Part shown: positions 10,110 to 23,494 of the stretch, piece by piece | How positions within the stretch are numbered: position 1 is the stretch's first letter | Layout of the letters: each line of letters begins with the position of its first letter | Sequence record: OQ921332.1 | DNA: 64,000 nt | Strand: one strand, 5' to 3' | Source of the DNA: Escherichia phage vB_EcoP_PAS59 | The notes under the pieces: model-generated | Databases searched by the model: none | What the model saw: the letters and a program-made list of their open reading frames with translations, nothing else | What the model was told of the DNA's origin: nothing | Position numbers and translations under genes: made by a program

Positions 10110-10185
10110 GCACCCTTAGCTCAATGGACAGAGCAGCGACCTTCTAAGTCGTTGGTTACAGGTTCGAATCCTGTAGGGTGCACCA
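10110..10185 (+). tRNA. tRNA-Arg (anticodon TCT)
   Basis: hand-folded cloverleaf: acceptor GCACCCT/AGGGTGC, D-arm GCTC..GAGC, anticodon loop CTTCTAA, T-arm ACAGG-TTCGAATC-CTGT, encoded CCA. Confidence 0.85.
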
Positions 10186-16203: not shown

Positions 16204-17154
16204 ATGTCAATCTCCGCATCGATTGCTCCGGTAACACCGGCAGAGGATTTCGGTGAGTCAGTGTTTAAAGGAAGGGCTTGCTTTGGTACTTTTAACTGTA
16301 TGCACATGTACTCTGTTACAGACATTAATGGCGACAGTCTTAGACAAACAAACCTTCGTGATAGAACTTCAGAAATTGAAGTTATTAACTTCTGGCCTCA
16401 CAATTTTTATGGCGTACCGTCTAAAGATATCGAAAGAGCTTTAGTTGAAGCAACAGACATTTTTAACTCAATGTCTTGCTATAAAGATATGTTCTCTGTC
16501 ACTTCGGTGAACTCTATTGCCGTGAACCTTCGAAACCATCCAGCAGACAAGGTGTTTACTGGACTAATGACCATCCGTAGCTATTTGGATGGTGATTTTA
16601 ATGGAATGGAGTTCCTTCAGGAAGGCGTACAAGACAAGGAAGAGTTGCTTAAGCGACAACGAATCGGTTTAGCTCTACGCCTAGCTGGTTTAAGTCGTAA
16701 CTTCTTTGGTCGCTGGTGTTATAGTAATGACGTAGACTCAACTGATGAGTCAGCAGCGACTTATTTTGATGGTGACATGAGTGCAATTGCATTTCTGCCA
16801 CTAATTTGCACCACTGATGAATTTTCTGAAAACGTATGGGTTCAGAATGTGTTCGGTGTTGATGATAACCGAGATGGTTATGTACGAAACCATAATGATG
16901 GAGTTCTCCGTCGTATGGCACGTCGTCGTGACCAAGACCCTGACCATTATGAGAGTATGAGTGAGTGGTTGCGTCTCTGGTCAACTTGTGCAGGTCACAA
17001 GCGAGAAGTATTAGATCAGCGTATGGACAGAATTACTGTTCGCAGTTTTATTGAACGTCTGATGCAAGCAGTACCTTCCTCAATGACACCAGAAGAAGCT
17101 GGTGCCCGTGTTGTTTCCCTTTTTGATGAACTCGTGGAGTATTACAATGACTAA
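16204..17154 (+). CDS. protein of unknown function
   Basis: ORF track; stop overlaps next start. Confidence 0.55.
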   Translation: MSISASIAPVTPAEDFGESVFKGRACFGTFNCMHMYSVTDINGDSLRQTNLRDRTSEIEVINFWPHNFYGVPSKDIERALVEATDIFNSMSCYKDMFSVTSVNSIAVNLRNHPADKVFTGLMTIRSYLDGDFNGMEFLQEGVQDKEELLKRQRIGLALRLAGLSRNFFGRWCYSNDVDSTDESAATYFDGDMSAIAFLPLICTTDEFSENVWVQNVFGVDDNRDGYVRNHNDGVLRRMARRRDQDPDHYESMSEWLRLWSTCAGHKREVLDQRMDRITVRSFIERLMQAVPSSMTPEEAGARVVSLFDELVEYYND

Positions 17155-17953
17155 GCGCGCTTTCCTTATTGGCTCTGACCCTGAAATGTTTGTTCGTACT
17201 GCTTCCGGTATTATCACCTCTGTGGCTGGTAAGCTGGGCTGTTCTAAAGATAATAAAATTGATCTGGCTCCTGATGTTCGTCTTCAAGAAGACAACGTTC
17301 TGGCTGAATTCGATATTAACCCACAGAAAGGGTTTGAAGCGTTTGATGATAATATTCAGCGTGGTATTGATCTGACTAACAAAGTTCTCAATGAACGTGG
17401 CATGGAGGCAGCACTTGGGATTAGCTCTCATGTGTTCACTTCAGAAGAACTTGAATCATTCCACCCGTCAGCTTTTGTATTTGGCTGTACTCCTGATTTC
17501 AATGCCTTCACTGGACAAAAGAACCCTTCACCAGTCGCAACCGATAAGGGTTTGCGTACTGCTGGGGGTCATGTGCACCTTGGTGTCTCCGGGACTTTAG
17601 AGATTACTCGACAAACTCAAATGATGTTGGGTGTGTTATGTGATTACTTCCTGTCCTTGCCAGCTGTGATCATGGATAAAGACACTCGTCGTAAAGAGTT
17701 GTACGGAAAGGCTTCTGCCATTCGCTACAAAGATTACGGTATTGAATATCGTTCTCTTTCTAACTTCTGGATTGGTGATAAGTCCACTCGCAAGTTTGTT
17801 TACGAGCAAGTGGATAAGGTTGTTCAGGGTTGTGATATGGAAGTGTTGATGTCACTTCACTCTCGCCTTCCAATTGAAAAGCTTCATAACATCATCAACA
17901 GCAACGATGTTAAAGAAGCGGATAAATTCTCCTCTAAACTCCAGATTGTATAA
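17147..17953 (+). CDS. glutamine-synthetase/GCS-like carboxylate-amine ligase (amidoligase), putative
   Basis: internal ATG of ORF track 17102..17953; motifs GSDPEMF, GGHVHLG, GIEYRSL in the order of the E..E / H.H / E.R motifs of YbdK-type ligases. Confidence 0.4.
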   Translation: MTKRAFLIGSDPEMFVRTASGIITSVAGKLGCSKDNKIDLAPDVRLQEDNVLAEFDINPQKGFEAFDDNIQRGIDLTNKVLNERGMEAALGISSHVFTSEELESFHPSAFVFGCTPDFNAFTGQKNPSPVATDKGLRTAGGHVHLGVSGTLEITRQTQMMLGVLCDYFLSLPAVIMDKDTRRKELYGKASAIRYKDYGIEYRSLSNFWIGDKSTRKFVYEQVDKVVQGCDMEVLMSLHSRLPIEKLHNIINSNDVKEADKFSSKLQIV

Positions 17954-17962
17954 GGTGATATT

Positions 17963-18589
17963 GTGAGCTTGTTAAGAGATTTTCAACACTATTATTGTGG
18001 AACATGGATTGCTCAGCGATCACCTGATGGTAAAAACCTCCCTCTATATGTGCTTGATGTTCGTCAGCAAGGTAACTTTGATATCGACGACTACTCACAC
18101 GACGCTGAAAGGTCTTTAGTGTTTGAGGCGGAACGCTGGACTAAAAACTCTGAAGGTCAGTTTGAACGTCAGATTGTTAGTAATATCCCAGTGTTTGATC
18201 ACAGCCTCATTCTAGAGTCTCCAGATGTAGGATACCTTCAGCATGGTAATAACATGGTGAGCTGGACCCATATCAACCCTGTTCGTCAGCGAGCTAAAGG
18301 CTTGATGGGGAATAAACTTCGTGGTGCTGCACCTTCTCTCGGACGTTCGATTCCGGGTGATTTGGTGTACAACTTGTTTAATCCAGAGTTTGAAGGGTTG
18401 GTTACTCGTTTCATCTATATCAACCCTGTCGATGGAAAAGTGTATTACAAAGGGGCTTACGTTGGAAACGTGCTTCTTGAAGCTGGCTATGGCGACAACG
18501 GTCGCCAATCTTTAAACCTTCTGGAGAAGTTCAAGCACATTTCTTCAGACCTGTCATCATATAATGTAGAGTTGGTGGAATCACTATGA
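17963..18589 (+). CDS. protein of unknown function
   Basis: ORF track; RBS AAGGTGA. Confidence 0.5.
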   Translation: MSLLRDFQHYYCGTWIAQRSPDGKNLPLYVLDVRQQGNFDIDDYSHDAERSLVFEAERWTKNSEGQFERQIVSNIPVFDHSLILESPDVGYLQHGNNMVSWTHINPVRQRAKGLMGNKLRGAAPSLGRSIPGDLVYNLFNPEFEGLVTRFIYINPVDGKVYYKGAYVGNVLLEAGYGDNGRQSLNLLEKFKHISSDLSSYNVELVESL

Positions 18590-19686
18590 CAACCGTAGCA
18601 CAAGTTTTTGGATACCGTAACCCTCGCTTATCTGAACCGCATCCAAGCATTGCTTTTCAGTGTGGTGTTGGTATTGAGTTAGAAGTCGAAGGTACTACTG
18701 ACATTGACGTTGATATGTGGGTTTGTACTGAAGACGGCTCTCTTCGTGATGGTTGTGAGTTAGTGTGTTCACGACCTTACAACGGTGAAGAATTACTTCG
18801 TGCTATTAACAATCTGAGTGAAGCAGTACAGGATTCTGGAGCCGAGGGGACTTGGCGCTGCTCCACTCACGTTCATATGGATATGCGGGACGCTGATAGT
18901 AATATCCTTAAGAAAGTTATTCTTGGGTGGACGTTCTATGAAAAGATGATGTTCAAATGTTCTGGATATCATCGTTACCGTAGTAACTTCTGCCCAGCTT
19001 TTGCTGTTGTTCAAGCTCAAGTTATGAATGCTTCATCAGCGTTCAACCGAGATGGGGAAGATTTCTTCCGTACTCTTGTTAATAGCTGGGACAAGTATAC
19101 CTCCCTTAACCTGTTGCCTCTATCTCAGTTTGGTTCTGTTGAGTTTCGTATTTCAGAGCCGAAGTGGAAAAAGAGTCAGCTGCTAAATCTGGTCAATCGC
19201 TTCTTGGTTCTCAAGAAACTGGCTGTTGAATATGCAGATTTAGATAATGAAGCTTATGTTGAGAAGTTGAATGAGCTGCGCTTCGCTCCTATGATTCAAC
19301 ATCTACCTCTAGACTATACTCCAAGAGATAGCGATCTCACTGAAGGGTATCGTCTTGCCCGTGATATTCTGTTCTGTCGTGAGCAATCTGTAACTTTGGT
19401 TGGTCGTGTTCGTGTGCAACAGACTGGCCCTGATGGTGAAGTCCTTATCAACTTACGTGACATGAATGACTTCTATGGTTTCTTGGGATATGTGCGCGGT
19501 AATGCCAACACTGTCTATGAAGAGATCATGACCTACTACACCCCTCAGATTGAAAGCACTCGAATCGCAACGGTTCGTGAAATTCGTCACATGTTTGCAT
19601 TGATGCGTGAATCAGGTAGCAGTGATAATAACATCACTGATTACATTCCAGACCATCTGGAAATGCAATTAGAACGACTGCTGTAA
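18586..19686 (+). CDS. glutamine-synthetase/GCS-like carboxylate-amine ligase (amidoligase), putative
   Basis: ORF track; motifs GIELEVEG, CSTHVHMD, SVEFRISE. Confidence 0.45.
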   Translation: MTTVAQVFGYRNPRLSEPHPSIAFQCGVGIELEVEGTTDIDVDMWVCTEDGSLRDGCELVCSRPYNGEELLRAINNLSEAVQDSGAEGTWRCSTHVHMDMRDADSNILKKVILGWTFYEKMMFKCSGYHRYRSNFCPAFAVVQAQVMNASSAFNRDGEDFFRTLVNSWDKYTSLNLLPLSQFGSVEFRISEPKWKKSQLLNLVNRFLVLKKLAVEYADLDNEAYVEKLNELRFAPMIQHLPLDYTPRDSDLTEGYRLARDILFCREQSVTLVGRVRVQQTGPDGEVLINLRDMNDFYGFLGYVRGNANTVYEEIMTYYTPQIESTRIATVREIRHMFALMRESGSSDNNITDYIPDHLEMQLERLL

Positions 19687-19763
19687 CACAATGGGCGCTC
19701 TGATAAAGGGCGCATTTAAAGGTTAATTAGATGAAAGGGTTTACCCTTCAGGTGGATTAGAAA

Positions 19764-21797
19764 ATTTGTGGTATCGTATTAGCTGGCGGCAACATGACCT
19801 CAACAGATTTGGATATTTTCAACCAACTTCTGTATGCTGGTGTTTTCCGTGGACAGCACTCAACTGGTGTGTTTGGTCAGCGTAAAGGTGAAAAGCAAGT
19901 CTTCTCTTATAAAGAAGCTCTTCCTTCTTATGCTTTTATGCTCCAGACAGAATATACAAATATTACCAAAGGGCTTACGAACTACGTAGTTCCTCCTTCG
20001 TGGATTGTTGGTCACAGCCGACATGCCACTCGTGGGGCTGTCAATGCTCGAAATGCTCACCCATTTACTCACGGGGATATTACTCTGGTTCATAATGGAA
20101 CCCTGTTAGATCAAGATCTCCTTCCTGACAGTAAGCGTTTCGAAGTTGATAGTGAAAACATCTGCCACTCAATTAATACCATTGGAGCAGCAGAGACTAT
20201 CCAAAAACTGGATGGTGCATTCACTTTGATTTGGCATGATGCTAAAGACAACACGCTTCACATTATCCGTAATGATGAGCGTCCTTTCCACCTAGCCCGT
20301 TGTGGTTTAGATTGGTTTGGGGCTTCTGAAGAAGCTATGCTTATGTGGATTTTAGAGCGTTCTAAATCCCACAAGAACCGTATCAATGACCACTTCGAAT
20401 GTAAAGTGGGAACTGAGTATATCTTTGATGTGTCTAACAGTCGTATGACTCTGGTTCAAGAGGTGGAGCACAAGCTTCCGGTTTTTACGATAACGAGTCG
20501 CTGGGGCGGCTATTACTCGAACTCCTCTCTATATCAGAACCGACAGACAAACAAATCAAGCAGCAGCACAAGCGACATTTACGGAAACAAAGACGACAAG
20601 CCCGGCGTGACAAGCGGAGACATTCGTCGTCGTAAAGCGATTGAAGACCAGAACAAACTGGCTGCCGATCGTGGTCTTCCTTATCGTCGTGATGGTCGTG
20701 TGGATATTATTCCTCACGAGTTCCATGCTTATAACAACACAGATCGTGGTAAGATGGTTGGTTACATCTACGACGATAAAGCCCAAGAGTATGTCGAAGG
20801 GGATGTTCACAACGTAGCCAAAGATGAATATCTTAAGGCTCTTGAAAACCCAAAGGTAGTATATCGCGGGACGATTGCTTGTATCTCCGAAGTGGACAGT
20901 ATGATTCGCCTCGTACTAACTTCAGGGCTGTTTGTTGATGCTACAGATAAGGAGCCTCAAAGCACTACTGCTGATTTTGATGATGATATCCCTTTTGATG
21001 CAGAGGACTCCTTCATCACTAAAAATGGTGTAGAAGTCACTCGTAAGTTCTGGGAATCTCACTCTCATGGAGATTGTGGTGGCTGTGATAAGCACATTGA
21101 CTGGAAAGATGCTCGTAAGGCTGTGTTTGCTTACCAAGCGTACTGGCATCCAGAATGCTTCGAAGCGTTGTCTAAAACCTCTGAAGAGGAAGAAGACGTA
21201 CCTTTGGGTGTATGTGCTGTCTGTGGTGAAGTCAAGACTGATTTCGAGTTTGACAACGAAATGAGTAAACTTCGTGGTGAAGATATTTGTTATATCTGCT
21301 CCAAAGAAATCAAAGATAAAGTAAAAAATGTTACTCTGTCTGAAGGTTATATTTGGACTAAAGCAGTAGACACAACTAATCCGCGTCGTCCTGAAGTGGC
21401 TGTTCGTGTTGATGAACGTATGCTTAGCCGTATGATTGTAATGGTCAGCTCAGCAAAACGTTCAGGGGATATTACACTCGCAGATGTTCCTAACTCATAT
21501 TTGGAAAAACGTGGTGGCGATACTTATGCCATTTCCGTTTACGGTCCAAAGAATGCCCCAAAGGAGGTACCCGCTGAGAAAGCGGAGACATTTCCAGAAA
21601 AATCAACCTCTCTCCGAAAAACAGTTGTCAGTTATGACGGACAACGAACAGCTGAGTTCACAAAAGCCCTCTGGACTTCAATTGGGTTTTGTGCAGTCTG
21701 TTATAAACAAATTCCGTGGCGTGATGCAGAAACTTGCTCACTAAACAAAGAAAATAGAGTGATCTGTAATTCAGATTACTGTAAAGGTAAACACTAA
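19764..21797 (+). CDS. class-II (Ntn) glutamine amidotransferase with Cys-rich C-terminal extension; start proposed at ATT 19764
   Basis: ORF track gives 19794..21797, but the in-frame codons just upstream encode (I)CGIVLAGGN, the canonical N-terminal Cys of PurF/GlmS-type amidotransferases; RGQ motif; C-terminal CxxC clusters. Confidence 0.5.
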   Translation: MCGIVLAGGNMTSTDLDIFNQLLYAGVFRGQHSTGVFGQRKGEKQVFSYKEALPSYAFMLQTEYTNITKGLTNYVVPPSWIVGHSRHATRGAVNARNAHPFTHGDITLVHNGTLLDQDLLPDSKRFEVDSENICHSINTIGAAETIQKLDGAFTLIWHDAKDNTLHIIRNDERPFHLARCGLDWFGASEEAMLMWILERSKSHKNRINDHFECKVGTEYIFDVSNSRMTLVQEVEHKLPVFTITSRWGGYYSNSSLYQNRQTNKSSSSTSDIYGNKDDKPGVTSGDIRRRKAIEDQNKLAADRGLPYRRDGRVDIIPHEFHAYNNTDRGKMVGYIYDDKAQEYVEGDVHNVAKDEYLKALENPKVVYRGTIACISEVDSMIRLVLTSGLFVDATDKEPQSTTADFDDDIPFDAEDSFITKNGVEVTRKFWESHSHGDCGGCDKHIDWKDARKAVFAYQAYWHPECFEALSKTSEEEEDVPLGVCAVCGEVKTDFEFDNEMSKLRGEDICYICSKEIKDKVKNVTLSEGYIWTKAVDTTNPRRPEVAVRVDERMLSRMIVMVSSAKRSGDITLADVPNSYLEKRGGDTYAISVYGPKNAPKEVPAEKAETFPEKSTSLRKTVVSYDGQRTAEFTKALWTSIGFCAVCYKQIPWRDAETCSLNKENRVICNSDYCKGKH

Positions 21798-22246: not shown

Positions 22247-23494
22247 ATGACTACTCGTATCCGTGTTCTTCCGTATGGCCCGTCTGATTCTGTTAACGCT
22301 CTGGTATCTGCTATCAGTGATACTATCCGTGATGAACGTATCAACGCTAACATAATGGGTCTTCTTTCAGAGAACAGTCGCTGGCGTTCTCGTGAGGATG
22401 ATGTGGTTGTGAACTACGGGAACCGTCGCTATCCTGAATCCTTCTTTGGTTCTGCAACTGTCCTTAACCGTACCGCAGCCTTACATATGGCAGCGAACAA
22501 ACGTCGTGCTTTCAGCGTGATGGACCAAGCAGGTGTTAAAACTGTTGAGTATACAGATGTTCAAGAGATTGCTCAGGAGTGGTCAAACTCTGGCAACATT
22601 GTGTATGAACGTCATGAACTGACTGGTCACTCTGGTTCGGGTATCGTTGTTGTTGAGCCTCGTGATTCAATTGGTCAAGCTGAACTGTACACCAAAGGTA
22701 TTCAAGGTCCACGTCGTGAATGGCGTGTCCATGTGTTCAAAGGTGTTATCACCTATGTTCAGAAGAAGATTCGTCGTAACGGCTATCGTGAAGACCCTAA
22801 CTATCGTGAAGATGTTCGTAACCATCACACTGGTTGGGTTTACTCAAGTTCCTTCACAGACGCTCCAAATGATGCATCTCTGATCAACGCAGTGAAGGCC
22901 GTTGAATCGATGGGTCTGGATTTTGGTGCAGTTGATATCATTACCAAAGGCCGAGAAGCATGGGTACTGGAAGTTAACACAGCACCGGGCCTGACTGGTA
23001 CAACTCTGGATATCTACCGTCACAACATCCTTGAGTTTGTTAAAGCTCAAAATCCTCTCTATACTCCTCAGTATAAAGTGGGTTACCAGACTCCTGTTGA
23101 AGCTCCAATCGAAGACGGAGATGGAGAGTTGGTAGATGACAGCGAAAGCGCTAATGATGAAAACTTTGCACTGGAAGGTCAGGTAGCACAGCCGGTTGAG
23201 TTGGTAGATGTAGTTCCTGAAGAGATGCAACTGGAAGGTCAGATGAATACTCAAACTATTCGTAATGCACCTACTGGTTACACTTTATCTCGTGGTTATT
23301 GGATTGCAGATATCCGTCATGTCCATAACAACCTGCAACCGAATGCAATGTCTTCCAATGTCATTTTGTTCTGTGATGGTCGTAACTTCTACCGTAGTGG
23401 CTGGAACGTTCCGGTCAATCCAGTCCAGATTCATAACCCTCGCAAGTTAGAATCTGTCAATGTTGAAGGTAGCGAAGTAGCAGTAACTCTGTAA
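22247..23494 (+). CDS. ATP-grasp ligase (RimK-like) with acidic C-terminal extension
   Basis: ORF track; ERHELTGHSGSGIVVVEP, EWRVHVFKG, DFGAVDII...WVLEVNTAPG. Confidence 0.55.
   Translation: MTTRIRVLPYGPSDSVNALVSAISDTIRDERINANIMGLLSENSRWRSREDDVVVNYGNRRYPESFFGSATVLNRTAALHMAANKRRAFSVMDQAGVKTVEYTDVQEIAQEWSNSGNIVYERHELTGHSGSGIVVVEPRDSIGQAELYTKGIQGPRREWRVHVFKGVITYVQKKIRRNGYREDPNYREDVRNHHTGWVYSSSFTDAPNDASLINAVKAVESMGLDFGAVDIITKGREAWVLEVNTAPGLTGTTLDIYRHNILEFVKAQNPLYTPQYKVGYQTPVEAPIEDGDGELVDDSESANDENFALEGQVAQPVELVDVVPEEMQLEGQMNTQTIRNAPTGYTLSRGYWIADIRHVHNNLQPNAMSSNVILFCDGRNFYRSGWNVPVNPVQIHNPRKLESVNVEGSEVAVTL

Follow-up and report, generated by a model that had tools for sequence, protein, structure and literature searches.

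The best explanation for the start of the amidotransferase gene in the window (the whole stretch of 64,000 nucleotides analysed, which belongs to a phiEco32-like coliphage with 99.7% identity to vB_EcoP_SU7) is that this class II enzyme would be translated from an AUU codon at position 19764, embedded in an initiation module of hairpin and Shine-Dalgarno (SD) sequence that recurs in the family. A probability of about 0.82 is assigned to this reading, which is built on sequence comparisons. Three observations are new here: the family-wide recurrence of ATT or ATC starts, the exact 7-nt spacing of the SD, and the SD-adjacent hairpin of variable sequence. A literature search brought up no description of an ATT/AUU start for any phage amidotransferase. 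The relevant features are collected in Table 1.

Table 1. Features of the amidotransferase locus, in window coordinates.
Feature	Position	Strand	Basis or remark
Upstream gene, amidoligase	18586..19686	+	ORF list; Pfam Amidoligase_2, E 1e-08; 'amidoligase enzyme' in the SU7 record
First intergenic hairpin, GCGCUCU-GAUAA-AGGGCGC	19695..19713	+	MFE structure
Near-invariant DNA island: leader, initiation region, first codons	19717..19783	+	~96 coliphages of three genera
Mini-ORF ATG AAA GGG TTT ACC CTT CAG GTG GAT TAG (MKGFTLQVD*), in frame	19731..19760	+	9 codons
SD-adjacent hairpin, UGAA(A)GGG-UUUA-CCCUUCA	19732..19750	+	Core AAGGG/CCCTT, 19735-19748
Shine-Dalgarno element GGTGGAT	19751..19757	+	Core ends 7 nt before ATT
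In-frame TAG inside the spacer TTAGAAA	19758..19760	+	Closes the frame upstream of ATT
Predicted initiation codon ATT, to be decoded as fMet	19764..19766	+	Orthologue of ATG in distant homologues; ATT in all 96 coliphage records
Full coding sequence, 677 codons + stop	19764..21797	+	ORF list; PHROG 4736
TGT, predicted catalytic N-terminal Cys codon (Cys1 after Met removal)	19767..19769	+	Invariant; aligns to GlmS/PurF Cys1
Predicted class II (Ntn) glutaminase domain	19767..20333	+	Pfam GATase_6, 53.7 bits (cut-off 27); motifs
ATG, Met11, non-conserved	19794..19796	+	Annotated start in the SU7, EK010 and ECBP2 records

Catalytic N-terminus and the conserved ATT codon

The ORF list opens the amidotransferase gene at ATG 19794 (an ORF of 667 amino acids), and the sequence bears out the claim of the initial annotation that the catalytic cysteine is encoded upstream of this codon. 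A single frame runs from the TAG through AAA, the ATT and TGT GGT ATC GTA TTA GCT GGC GGC AAC to the ATG, and the in-frame codons between TAG 19758 and ATG 19794 include no ATG, GTG or TTG. The GGTGGA reported upstream of the ATT is likewise in place, at 19751-19756, 7 nt before it. Two features that the initial annotation had not mentioned, the in-frame mini-ORF of 9 codons and a stable hairpin adjoining the SD, were also observed (Table 1).

The resemblance of the encoded (M)CGIV to an amidotransferase N-terminus, on which the initial annotation relied, is not due to chance. In an alignment based on a profile of 18 homologues, the Cys coincides with residue 1 of GlmS, that is, Cys1 of the mature glutaminase domain of the Escherichia coli enzyme (1xff_A, E 1.6e-15), and with Cys1 of PurF (1ecb_A), and the codon that precedes it aligns to Met1 of 4amv_A. 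The match spans GlmS residues 1-173; the profile was required to align Cys1, a single-sequence search of the PDB having reached the core motif only. PHROG 4736 matches residues 2-514 (E 1e-183), with residue 2 of the protein falling on position 2 of the profile. In the alignment of 18 sequences, Cys2 and Gly3 are invariant, and this Cys is the first residue after the initiator Met only if the start is ATT 19764. The glutaminase motifs are invariant or nearly so in the same sequences (R29-G30, H84xR86xxT89xG91, N97AHPF101, H110-N-G112 and D129-S130).

The N-terminal domain of the 677-residue product is a predicted class II (Ntn) glutamine amidotransferase, for which Pfam GATase_7 also scores 25.1 bits against a cut-off of 25. 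As in GlmS and PurF, the Cys nucleophile comes right after the initiator Met and the motifs of the glutamine site are conserved, but the phage protein has neither a sugar-isomerase nor a phosphoribosyltransferase domain. No SIS (sugar-isomerase) domain was detected in it by Pfam, and the C-terminal ~440 residues, which are Cys-rich and contain several CxxC pairs, have no Pfam match. The name GlmS was considered and rejected: the NCBIfam models PRK00331 and TIGR01135 score 41.5 bits (cut-off 381) and 33.7 bits (cut-off 418), respectively, and match residues 2-194 only. The GlmS label used in many records is a misnomer. The orthologues phi32_83 of phiEco32, gp085 of SU10 and those in Bas86-Bas94 are labelled 'glutamine amidotransferase / L-glutamine-D-fructose-6-phosphate aminotransferase'.

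The comparative evidence favours the initially proposed ATT 19764, and translation almost certainly starts at this codon, not at ATG 19794. Homologues from other phage families have ATG-TGY-GGN (MCGI/LV) at the exact position of ATT-TGT-GGT (Proteus 3H10_20, Cronobacter 009, Vibrio Vp_R1, Salmonella SE131, Aeromonas LAh_8, Pantoea TacPo2 and LUZ24 gp19). Among phiEco32-like coliphages, ATT is present in 96/96 records, 27 of which are identical to the window over 71 nt, whereas the other 69 match the ATT/GGC variant exactly; the 71-nt element is found in 98 phage records altogether. No ATG revertant was seen among the coliphages, and a synthetic ATG version of the element was matched by 0 records. 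The near-invariant island that surrounds the ATT is about 88% conserved in Aeromonas phage BUCT695, which belongs to a different family. In this phage, identity reaches 88% in the 50-nt leader, compared with 46% in the 100 nt upstream of the leader and 44-60% in the coding sequence.

The use of ATT is not confined to this group. The 80 homologous loci identified in IMG/VR start with ATG (66), ATT (12), ATC (1) or TTG (1), so that ATT or ATC replaces ATG in about 16% of the phage amidotransferase family, in about 10 scattered lineages. A profile-based search was needed for this census, as a single-protein search yielded 4 loci only. The ATT lineages are scattered over the family tree, which was built by neighbour-joining and carries no support values. 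A narrow DNA pattern retrieved from IMG/VR only the known phages and one chance match. In 185,579 species genomes, the ATT arrangement had a single true match, a glmS.

Hairpin and Shine-Dalgarno sequence upstream of probable non-ATG starts

In every ATT/ATC homologue, the SD core ends exactly 7 nt upstream of the start codon and is followed by T, whereas in the ATG homologues the SD spacing varies from 2 to 10 nt. The 7-nt spacer is present in all 15 of the 15 unbiased ATT/ATC sequences, compared with 21/62 ATG sequences. In the unbiased set, ATT and ATG genes show no significant difference in SD strength (p 0.41), which gives no support to a stronger SD as the distinguishing property of the ATT genes; these differ in spacing and in the hairpin instead. 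The SD at 19751-19757 is itself weaker than that of most other ATT lineages: its best duplex with the anti-SD has an energy of -5.9 kcal/mol, and GGUGGA is mismatched to the anti-SD at its centre in the register used by the family.

The hairpin adjoining the SD in the window has a predicted energy of -6.1 kcal/mol, with the arms 83-95% paired in the ensemble, and the single BUCT695 change inside it falls in the loop. The fold of the whole leader is no more stable than those of shuffled sequences (z -1.0), only the local hairpin being robust. It is not a genome repeat: elsewhere there are only weak matches, with 2-3 mismatches. Because loop and gap lengths vary and the stems are unrelated as far as MAFFT alignment is concerned, hairpins were compared across the family by position-anchored counts with matched controls; part of the ATT set was gathered with patterns that fixed the SD but left the hairpin free. 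A hairpin of 5-7 bp adjoins the SD in 20/28 non-ATG lineages and in 0/59 ATG lineages (p about 1e-13). Longer intergenic spacers were considered as the cause of this excess and rejected, since the association holds when only spacers of 25 nt or more are counted (15/18 non-ATG versus 0/17 ATG, p 2.5e-7). In another comparison, 12 of 13 ATT lineages had the SD-adjacent hairpin and none of the 6 ATG lineages that share the SD pattern did; among chance matches, 10 of 73 had one. Each lineage has a stem sequence of its own, and four lineages (L041, L145, L188 and L203) retain the hairpin even within upstream coding sequence. A sub-clade with ATT, ATC or TTG starts (L081, L098, L130 and L097) has no hairpin, which is therefore not obligatory.

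The recurring module consists of a hairpin of 5-7 bp with a loop of 3-5 nt, a gap of 0-3 nt, GGAG(G)AU, 6 nt, and AUU-UGY-GG; the SD of the module in the window phage is GGUGGAU. For initiation at such a module, the 30S subunit would bind the SD de novo and the initiator tRNA would read AUU, giving fMet-Cys, whereupon deformylase and methionine aminopeptidase would expose Cys1. The N-terminal peptide predicted for the ATT start is CGIVLAGGNMTSTDLDIFNQLLYAGVFR, with Met removed and Cys alkylated. The hairpin might fix or stabilize the SD:anti-SD helix, for example, through stacking or register, so as to place the weak AUU exactly in the P site, and the AUU itself would keep the output low and sensitive to IF3 and to the physiological state of the host, as at infC. 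In E. coli, AUU initiates at 1-2% of AUG and the confirmed AUU starts are those of infC and pcnB only (bioRxiv 10.1101/063800); context, IF3 and ppGpp all affect AUU mRNAs (PMC5499595), and conserved non-canonical starts go together with strong, correctly spaced SDs (bioRxiv 10.1101/2025.06.19.660503).

In ~96 coliphage genomes, the combination of ATT, SD and hairpin is frozen, and in an Aeromonas phage from another family it is nearly so. A tentative proposal, somewhat on the doubtful side, is that hairpin, 7-nt spacing and AUU together constitute a distinct initiation device, open to selection, that gates a glutamine-consuming phage enzyme: the structure next to the SD would make a very poor AUU usable yet dependent on the IF3 level, ppGpp and nutrients. 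With similar reservation, such a device may have been retained or re-created in at least 10 divergent lineages, with hardly any trace of it in the cellular paralogues glmS and purF.

Alternative readings of the start region

The AUU could also be reached by termination-reinitiation, with the mini-ORF translated, terminated at the UAG 3 nt before the AUU, and followed by a restart aided by the SD that lies inside the mini-ORF. In favour of this, the mini-ORF is in frame and preceded by AAAGG (8-9 nt before its ATG), it ends within the SD-to-AUU spacer, and it is kept in BUCT695; it might contribute in the lineage of the window. The layout is similar to that of infC, where the stop of thrS takes the same position (GGAGGA-A-TAA-GGT-ATT, compared with GGTGGA-T-TAG-AAA-ATT in the phage and GGAGGA-T-TAG-AAA-ATT in its metagenomic relatives), and lineages L040, L041 and L050 have a 4-codon ATG CAG GAG GAT TAG. 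Nevertheless, reinitiation is improbable. Most of the other ATT lineages have no ORF like the mini-ORF and none that ends in the spacer, upstream ORFs of at least 50 codons ending near the start being found in 7/32 non-ATG sequences as against 41/62 ATG sequences, and in four lineages there is no in-frame start upstream of the TAG at all. Stop triplets in the spacer are as common among ATG genes (76%) as among non-ATG genes (78%), so that TAG 19758 is not evidently functional. In BUCT695, the mini-ORF lacks the SD-like AAAGG before its ATG, and both substitutions in it are non-synonymous, with no synonymous changes, which points to constraint at the level of RNA rather than peptide. Two bases of the AUG that opens the mini-ORF, U and G, are moreover paired within the hairpin. 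The family-wide counts of ORFs and stops do not support the in-frame stop and mini-ORF as a general coupling device, and the mini-ORF is probably incidental to the hairpin.

It is very unlikely that the start is ATG 19794, which would give a glutaminase-dead product without the first ten residues, including the catalytic Cys. The ORF has no canonical start codon before this ATG, which was chosen by the depositors of three records (SU7, EK010 and ECBP2); the SU7 record marks a 4-nt RBS in front of it. The ATG is found, however, only in Suseptimavirus, the corresponding codon being CTC in Nieuwekanaalvirus, CTG in Kuravirus and AAC in BUCT695; absent from the sister genera, it cannot be a conserved start. 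The ten codons before it show the signs of coding selection: the changes between genera are mostly synonymous (GGT/GGC, GCT/GCA, GGC/GGG/GGT/GGA, AAC/AAT, GTA/GTC and TTA/TTG), with two replacements only, N to S and G to S. The conservation of all catalytic motifs of the glutaminase would be senseless without Cys1, and the sequence preceding the ATG, GCTGGCGGCAAC, offers just a weak SD-like GGCGG, whereas the strictly conserved SD and hairpin stand before the ATT. Starts downstream of the Cys codon are annotated in at least six records (SU7, EK010, ECBP2, KBNP1711, EP335 and BUCT695), and protein databases therefore hold versions that lack the catalytic Cys; expression constructs built from these records would be expected to be glutaminase-dead.

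Slightly less likely still is a start at ATG 19731 with readthrough of the UAG, after which Cys1 would be exposed by autocatalytic removal of a 12-residue extension, MKGFTLQVD-X-KI. In SU7 as in BUCT695, the mini-ORF shares the frame of the main ORF, Ntn enzymes are capable of self-processing, the PurF of Bacillus subtilis has a propeptide that is removed autocatalytically, and UAG followed by A is not the strongest context for termination. However, no propeptide-type extension is encoded in the open frame, which TAG 19758 closes two codons before the Cys, and there is no suppressor tRNA, the sole tRNA in the 64-kb window being Arg-TCT. In wild-type E. coli, spontaneous readthrough of UAG should be far rarer than AUU initiation. 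In the other ATT lineages, the stops are out of frame or an upstream start is missing, and all ATG-start homologues begin directly with Met-Cys, without a propeptide. Finally, the notion of a sequencing error at the ATT, or of a recent mutation that inactivated the gene and left a pseudogene, for which one G to T change in an ATG would be enough, is effectively refuted by the fixation of the same ATT in 96 independently sequenced coliphage genomes, and also conflicts with its presence in 2 Aeromonas phage records and many metagenomic contigs, the intact and conserved 677-codon ORF, and the recurrence of ATT in about 10 divergent lineages, each time with constraint on the initiation region.

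Known AUU starts and the genomic neighbourhood

The proposed start of the phage gene shares with E. coli infC the AUU codon, a GGAGGA-type SD and the 7-nt spacer; in infC, this codon is what IF3 discriminates against (PMC5499595). The two systems differ in that infC has no SD-adjacent hairpin, that the stop in its spacer is the real stop of thrS, and that the product of infC regulates its own expression, whereas the phage protein is unrelated to translation. In Staphylococcus aureus, cvfC1 (AUU), ccpN (AUA) and infC (AUA) similarly combine a conserved weak start with a strong SD and conserved spacing, and the output of such non-canonical starts is about 10% of that of AUG and, in one case, depends on the medium (bioRxiv 10.1101/2025.06.19.660503). 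These are cellular genes of a Firmicute; in the passages considered, longer SD:anti-SD pairing compensates for the weak start and no flanking hairpin is mentioned. In the phage family, by contrast, the SD is not significantly stronger than in the ATG homologues, and it is the exact spacing and the hairpin that are special.

An ATT is already annotated as the start in phi32_83 of phiEco32 (2008), gp085 of SU10, and the BASEL phages Bas87, Bas88, Bas89 and Bas91; no experimental support was found for the annotations of phiEco32, SU10 and the BASEL phages, which are database annotations only. The records of Bas86-Bas94 list E. coli as the host. A coliphage gene with AUU fixed in about 100 genomes stands beside just two confirmed AUU starts of E. 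coli, and provides a natural, easily mutated system for finding out what makes a non-canonical start work. It is also suited to asking whether phages tie the expression of metabolic enzymes to the translation state of the host via such starts.

The amidotransferase gene is accompanied by genes for a COOH-NH2 ligase, an amidoligase and a RimK-like ATP-grasp enzyme, as identified with Pfam. For phage clusters of amidoligase and ATP-grasp genes, a role in the synthesis or modification of peptides or the cell wall has been proposed (Iyer et al. 2009, as cited in PMC10580990). The amidoligase gene ends with TAA, and 77 nt separate this stop from ATT 19764. In this intergenic region, neither a consensus terminator nor a sigma-70-like promoter was found. 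The consensus of the phiEco32 gp36 promoter, TAATGTATA, is not matched near the leader, and across the window it occurs no more often overall than expected by chance; an Rfam scan of positions 19600-19900, with E values up to 10, gave no credible match. The first intergenic hairpin is terminator-like but lacks a proper U run. Its pairing is kept across genera while the stem sequence varies (GUGCCUC/GGGGCAC in KBNP1711 and phiEco32), and a terminator is annotated at this hairpin in the record of phage 4E8.

The start codon of the amidotransferase gene

The window derives from a phiEco32-like podophage of the Gordonclarkvirinae that is 99.7% identical to Escherichia phage vB_EcoP_SU7 across the amidotransferase region (SU7 is also used below for the window's own sequence). 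The reading frame is as the initial annotation described it: TAG, AAA and ATT are followed by TGT GGT ATC GTA TTA GCT GGC GGC AAC and then by ATG 19794, where the ORF list places the start of the 667-codon amidotransferase ORF; no ATG, GTG or TTG occurs among the in-frame codons from the TAG to this ATG, and the Shine-Dalgarno (SD) sequence GGTGGA lies upstream of the ATT (see table). The proposal that translation starts at this ATT is judged correct, since five independent lines of evidence agree, and comparison shows ATT 19764 to be the start position.

Features of the window discussed in the text
Feature	Position	Strand	Remark
tRNA-Arg	10110-10185		anticodon TCT; sole tRNA
COOH-NH2 ligase	17102-17953		same cluster as amidotransferase
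Amidoligase_2 protein	18586-19686		same cluster as amidotransferase
Second intergenic hairpin	19695-19713		GCGCUCU-GAUAA-AGGGCGC
TTTAAA(G/T)GT(T)AA motif	19717-19731
Mini-ORF MKGFTLQVD*	19731-19760		ATG to TAG; in frame with amidotransferase
SD-adjacent hairpin	19732-19750		UGAA(A)GGG-UUUA-CCCUUCA
SD GGTGGA	19751-19756
In-frame TAG	19758-19760
Predicted ATT start codon	19764-19766
ATG start in the ORF list	19794
C-terminal Cys-rich region	20450-21797		residues ~230-677
RimK-like ATP-grasp protein	22247-23494		same cluster as amidotransferase (GATase_6/7)
TGGAGAT-tctgga-ATC	61157	-	788 open codons follow; flanking stem weak, 4-bp, AT-rich; most likely lies within a large gene, not at a start
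TAATGTATA, exact copies	626, 33995, 41046	+	published phiEco32 gp36 promoter consensus
TAATGTATA, exact copies	40975, 51676	-	published phiEco32 gp36 promoter consensus

Other phage groups carry ATG-TGY-GGN at the exact position of the window's ATT-TGT-GGT, among them the Grimontviridae 3H10_20, vB_CsaP_009, Vp_R1 and SE131 as well as Lahexavirus LAh_8, Pantoea TacPo2 and Bruynoghevirus LUZ24 gp19. With tblastn, 327 of 50,697 phage records were retrieved, and 59 of the 60 alignments listed start at query residue 1. The DNA at ~19717-19783 is invariant across three coliphage genera, compared with ~78-90% identity in the flanking coding DNA, and a 71-nt query (19714-19784) matched 98 records: 27 identical, 69 with one mismatch and 2 from Aeromonas phage at 88.7%. 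The ATT/GGC version of the junction is found at 100% in 69 records and the remaining 27 coliphage records have the window's ATT/GGT version; a synthetic ATG version has an exact match in none. Given that ~100 genomes contain no ATG revertant although one base change would suffice, this absence argues that the ATT is selected, more than tolerated. ATG 19794 is not conserved across the compared genomes: Nieuwekanaalvirus has CTC in its place, Kuravirus (phiEco32 among them) has CTG and the Aeromonas phage BUCT695 has AAC, and gene callers moved to a GTG or ATG 200-250 nt further downstream in those genomes. In the ten codons from ATT to ATG, the intergenus changes are mostly synonymous, with only two replacements (N to S and G to S).

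The ATT start is already known from the GenBank annotation of sister phages, namely phiEco32 phi32_83 (EU330206), SU10 gp085 and BASEL phages Bas87, Bas88, Bas89 and Bas91; the equivalent of ATG 19794 is used in the SU7, EK010 and ECBP2 records. Late downstream ATG or GTG starts, 10 to ~85 codons too late, are annotated for SU7 (MZ342906/NC_070980), EK010 (LC553734), ECBP2 (NC_018859), KBNP1711 (NC_023593), EP335 (NC_070979) and BUCT695 (NC_070977), which correspond to comparison loci L001-L003, L006, L007, L009 and L024, so that the deposited proteins lack the catalytic Cys1. The literature search found no paper discussing an ATT start of a phage amidotransferase. Judged by comparison, this is a further AUU-initiated gene beside infC and pcnB, the only confirmed AUU genes in E. 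coli, where AUU reporters yield ~1-2% of AUG output (bioRxiv 10.1101/063800). Three features are apparently undescribed in the searchable literature: repeated use of ATT at the Met-Cys junction throughout a family of phage enzymes, the stereotyped SD-to-ATT spacing in the amidotransferase family and the SD-adjacent hairpin associated with the ATT start.

The catalytic cysteine and the encoded protein

By homology, the Cys following the ATT is the catalytic Cys1, as initially annotated. A profile built from 18 aligned N-terminal domains, which are 27-86% identical to the window, aligns with 1xff_A, the mature glutaminase domain of E. coli GlmS, beginning at Cys1 (residue 1; E 1.6e-15), the codon before Cys corresponds to Met1 in 4amv_A, the unprocessed chain, and PurF structures are matched in the same way; the profile was needed for Cys1 because a single-sequence structure search covered the core motif only. 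In these domains C2 and G3 are invariant, as are the RG, HxRxATxG, NAHPF, HNG and DS motifs, and the comparison shows that the gene encodes an intact Ntn glutaminase.

PHROG 4736 matches residues 2-514, starting at profile position 2 (E 1e-183). GlmS identity was rejected: the NCBIfam GlmS model scores 41.5 bits against a threshold of 381 and its match is confined to residues 2-194, so that the protein is not GlmS but a class-II glutaminase domain with ~440 Cys-rich residues. These C-terminal residues have no Pfam match and contain several CxxC pairs (e.g. CGGCDKH...HPEC, CAVCGEV...CYIC and CAVCYKQ...CNSDYC), which suggest zinc-ribbon-like modules. Iyer et al. 2009 (as cited in PMC10580990) proposed that the gene cluster makes or modifies peptides or the cell wall.

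ATT starts, spacing and the SD-adjacent hairpin across the family

A metagenome scan with GGNGGATTAGAAAATNTGYGG, which allowed any base at the third position of the start codon, yielded, besides coliphages, ten contigs that represent six lineages of amidotransferase homologues, all very divergent (N-termini ICGIWAVIPRG.., ICGIHFVLGNG.., ICGLVGIMNF.., ICGIFGVLAAT.., ICGIVGIASNN.. and ICGIVGMAGAI..), all with ATT and with flanks unrelated to SU7; its ATG and ATC matches included no amidotransferases. Among 80 IMG/VR loci found by protein profile, and hence unbiased by DNA pattern, the codon before Cys is ATG in 66 (locus L083 included), ATT in 12 (5 phiEco32-like plus 7 other lineages), ATC in one and TTG in one. 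The ATT genes occupy about ten separate places, often adjoining ATG genes, in a neighbour-joining tree without support values. In 185,579 bacterial and archaeal species (one genome each), GGAGRAT-N6-ATT-TGY-GGN-ATH-GT, a pattern that would recover about one in two of the ATT genes of phages, has seven matches, one of them real. With this single true match, ATT at the Met-Cys junction is peculiar to this phage amidotransferase family, not general to Ntn amidotransferases. The match is a 607-aa glmS of a Hyphomicrobiales MAG (L135, JAPLOW010000103.1, minus strand around 2093-2119; GGAGGAT-ATAACT-ATT-TGC-GGC), which appears to use the same SD-ATT arrangement.

In the unbiased set, ATT and ATG genes show no significant difference in SD strength (p 0.41) but do differ in geometry. 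All 15 ATT/ATC sequences place the end of the SD core (GGAGGA, GGAGA, GGTGGA or GGCGGA) exactly 7 nt from the start codon, with T as the next base; among ATG genes the spacer varies between 2 and 10 nt and is 7 nt long in 21/62. The window contains a further element, absent from the initial annotation, a hairpin ending directly at the SD (-6.1 kcal/mol, arms >80% paired in the ensemble), beside which SD, spacer and ATT are 60-68% unpaired. SU7 fits a module of SD-abutting hairpin, fixed spacing and ATT (AAGGG-UUUA-CCCUU, CA, GGUGGAU-UAGAAA-AUU); within the 64 kb, no other such module in front of a long ORF has a hairpin of the required size (at least 5 bp and at least 2 G:C pairs).

Matched IMG/VR scans with GGAGRAT-N6-ATT-TGYGGNNT and its ATG twin recovered 21 true ATT homologues (13 lineages) and 17 ATG homologues (6 lineages). 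A hairpin (stem 5-7 bp, at least 2 G:C pairs, loop 3-5 nt, end -1 to +3 nt from the SD) is present in 12/13 ATT lineages versus 0/6 ATG lineages (p 2.6e-4) and 10/73 non-homologous chance matches (p 2e-8); the ATT set was partly collected with SD-containing patterns, the hairpin was part of no pattern, and the ATG and chance controls were matched. All stems differ (GCCCU/AGGGC, GAACC/GGUUC, CAAGC/GCUUG, CCUAG/CUAGG, AAUGC/GCAUU, AAAGC/GCUUU, GUCGG/CCGAC, CCGGC/GCCGG and others). Among all lineage-deduplicated genes, 20/28 non-ATG versus 0/59 ATG genes have the hairpin (p about 1e-13, with lineages not fully independent). Because ATT genes usually have a real intergenic spacer upstream, the test was repeated for genes with spacers of at least 25 nt (15/18 versus 0/17, p 2.5e-7); in four lineages the hairpin is preserved inside the upstream gene's coding sequence. 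It is frequent, not obligatory, since one ATT/ATC/TTG sub-clade lacks it (IMG/VR contigs L081 and L098, ATT; L130, ATC; L097, TTG), with spacers GGAGAU-UUUAUU or GGAGAU-AUUAUU in the first three; this sub-clade represents a second type of non-ATG initiation region within the family.

In this family, a strict 7-nt spacing together with a hairpin set against the SD looks like its own version of a compensating context for a weak start. AUU mRNAs are poor competitors, strongly context-dependent and responsive to IF3, ppGpp and nutrient state (PMC5499595). Conserved non-canonical starts of S. aureus are reported in a preprint to have strong SDs, conserved spacing and ~10% of AUG output (bioRxiv 10.1101/2025.06.19.660503). 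Following established bacterial initiation, the 30S subunit would bind the SD, the initiator tRNA would decode AUU as fMet, and deformylase and methionine aminopeptidase would expose Cys1. The hairpin may lock the SD:anti-SD helix in register or stack on it, holding the weak AUU in the P site, and AUU might keep a glutamine-consuming enzyme low, IF3-sensitive and physiology-sensitive.

The mini-ORF and the shared leader

The leader also includes a mini-ORF that the initial annotation did not mention. Translation of this mini-ORF followed by termination-reinitiation at the AUU was considered because E. coli infC has the same layout (GGAGGA-A-TAA-GGT-ATT, equal to the phage GGTGGA-T-TAG-AAA-ATT), its TAA being the thrS stop. 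However, the family data argue against reinitiation as a general mechanism: upstream ORFs of at least 50 codons ending near the start accompany 7/32 non-ATG versus 41/62 ATG sequences, the two groups have spacer stop triplets equally often (78% and 76%), and in four ATT lineages no in-frame start precedes the TAG. In SU7 the hairpin half buries the mini-ORF AUG, and the SD-like AAAGG before it is missing in BUCT695. Reinitiation is left as a minor option for the SU7 lineage only. UAG readthrough from the mini-ORF with subsequent propeptide cleavage is unlikely because the window has no suppressor tRNA and the ATG homologues all begin directly with Met-Cys.

The same leader occurs in BUCT695 (Grimontviridae, Libingvirus; ...TTAG ATG AAA GGG TTA ACC CTT CAG GCG GAT TAG AAA ATT TGT GGC...), whose protein is only 57% identical and groups with ATG-start 7-11-like phages. 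Identity is 88% in the 50-nt leader, compared with 46% in the DNA before it and 44-60% within the coding sequence. The two mini-ORF changes of BUCT695, hairpin loop UUUA to UUAA and SD GGUGGA to GGCGGA, are both non-synonymous for the mini-ORF, which suggests constraint on RNA, not peptide.

The motif TTTAAA(G/T)GT(T)AA, ~20-45 nt upstream of the start (about 3001-3020 in L024), is common to phiEco32-like phages, to BUCT695 and to several Grimontviridae with ATG starts (e.g. TTTAAATGTAAA; upstream of L057, L059, L061 and L062), in which it is similar to tAATGTAtA, the promoter element of phiEco32 gp36, and could be a promoter or some other signal. The count in the window of the gp36 (phage sigma factor) consensus with at most one mismatch is not above chance, with none near the amidotransferase leader. 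The second intergenic hairpin directly follows the amidoligase stop codon and has no U run; its stem varies among genera (GUGCCUC/GGGGCAC) with pairing preserved, and it is labelled a terminator in the record of a relative, phage 4E8.
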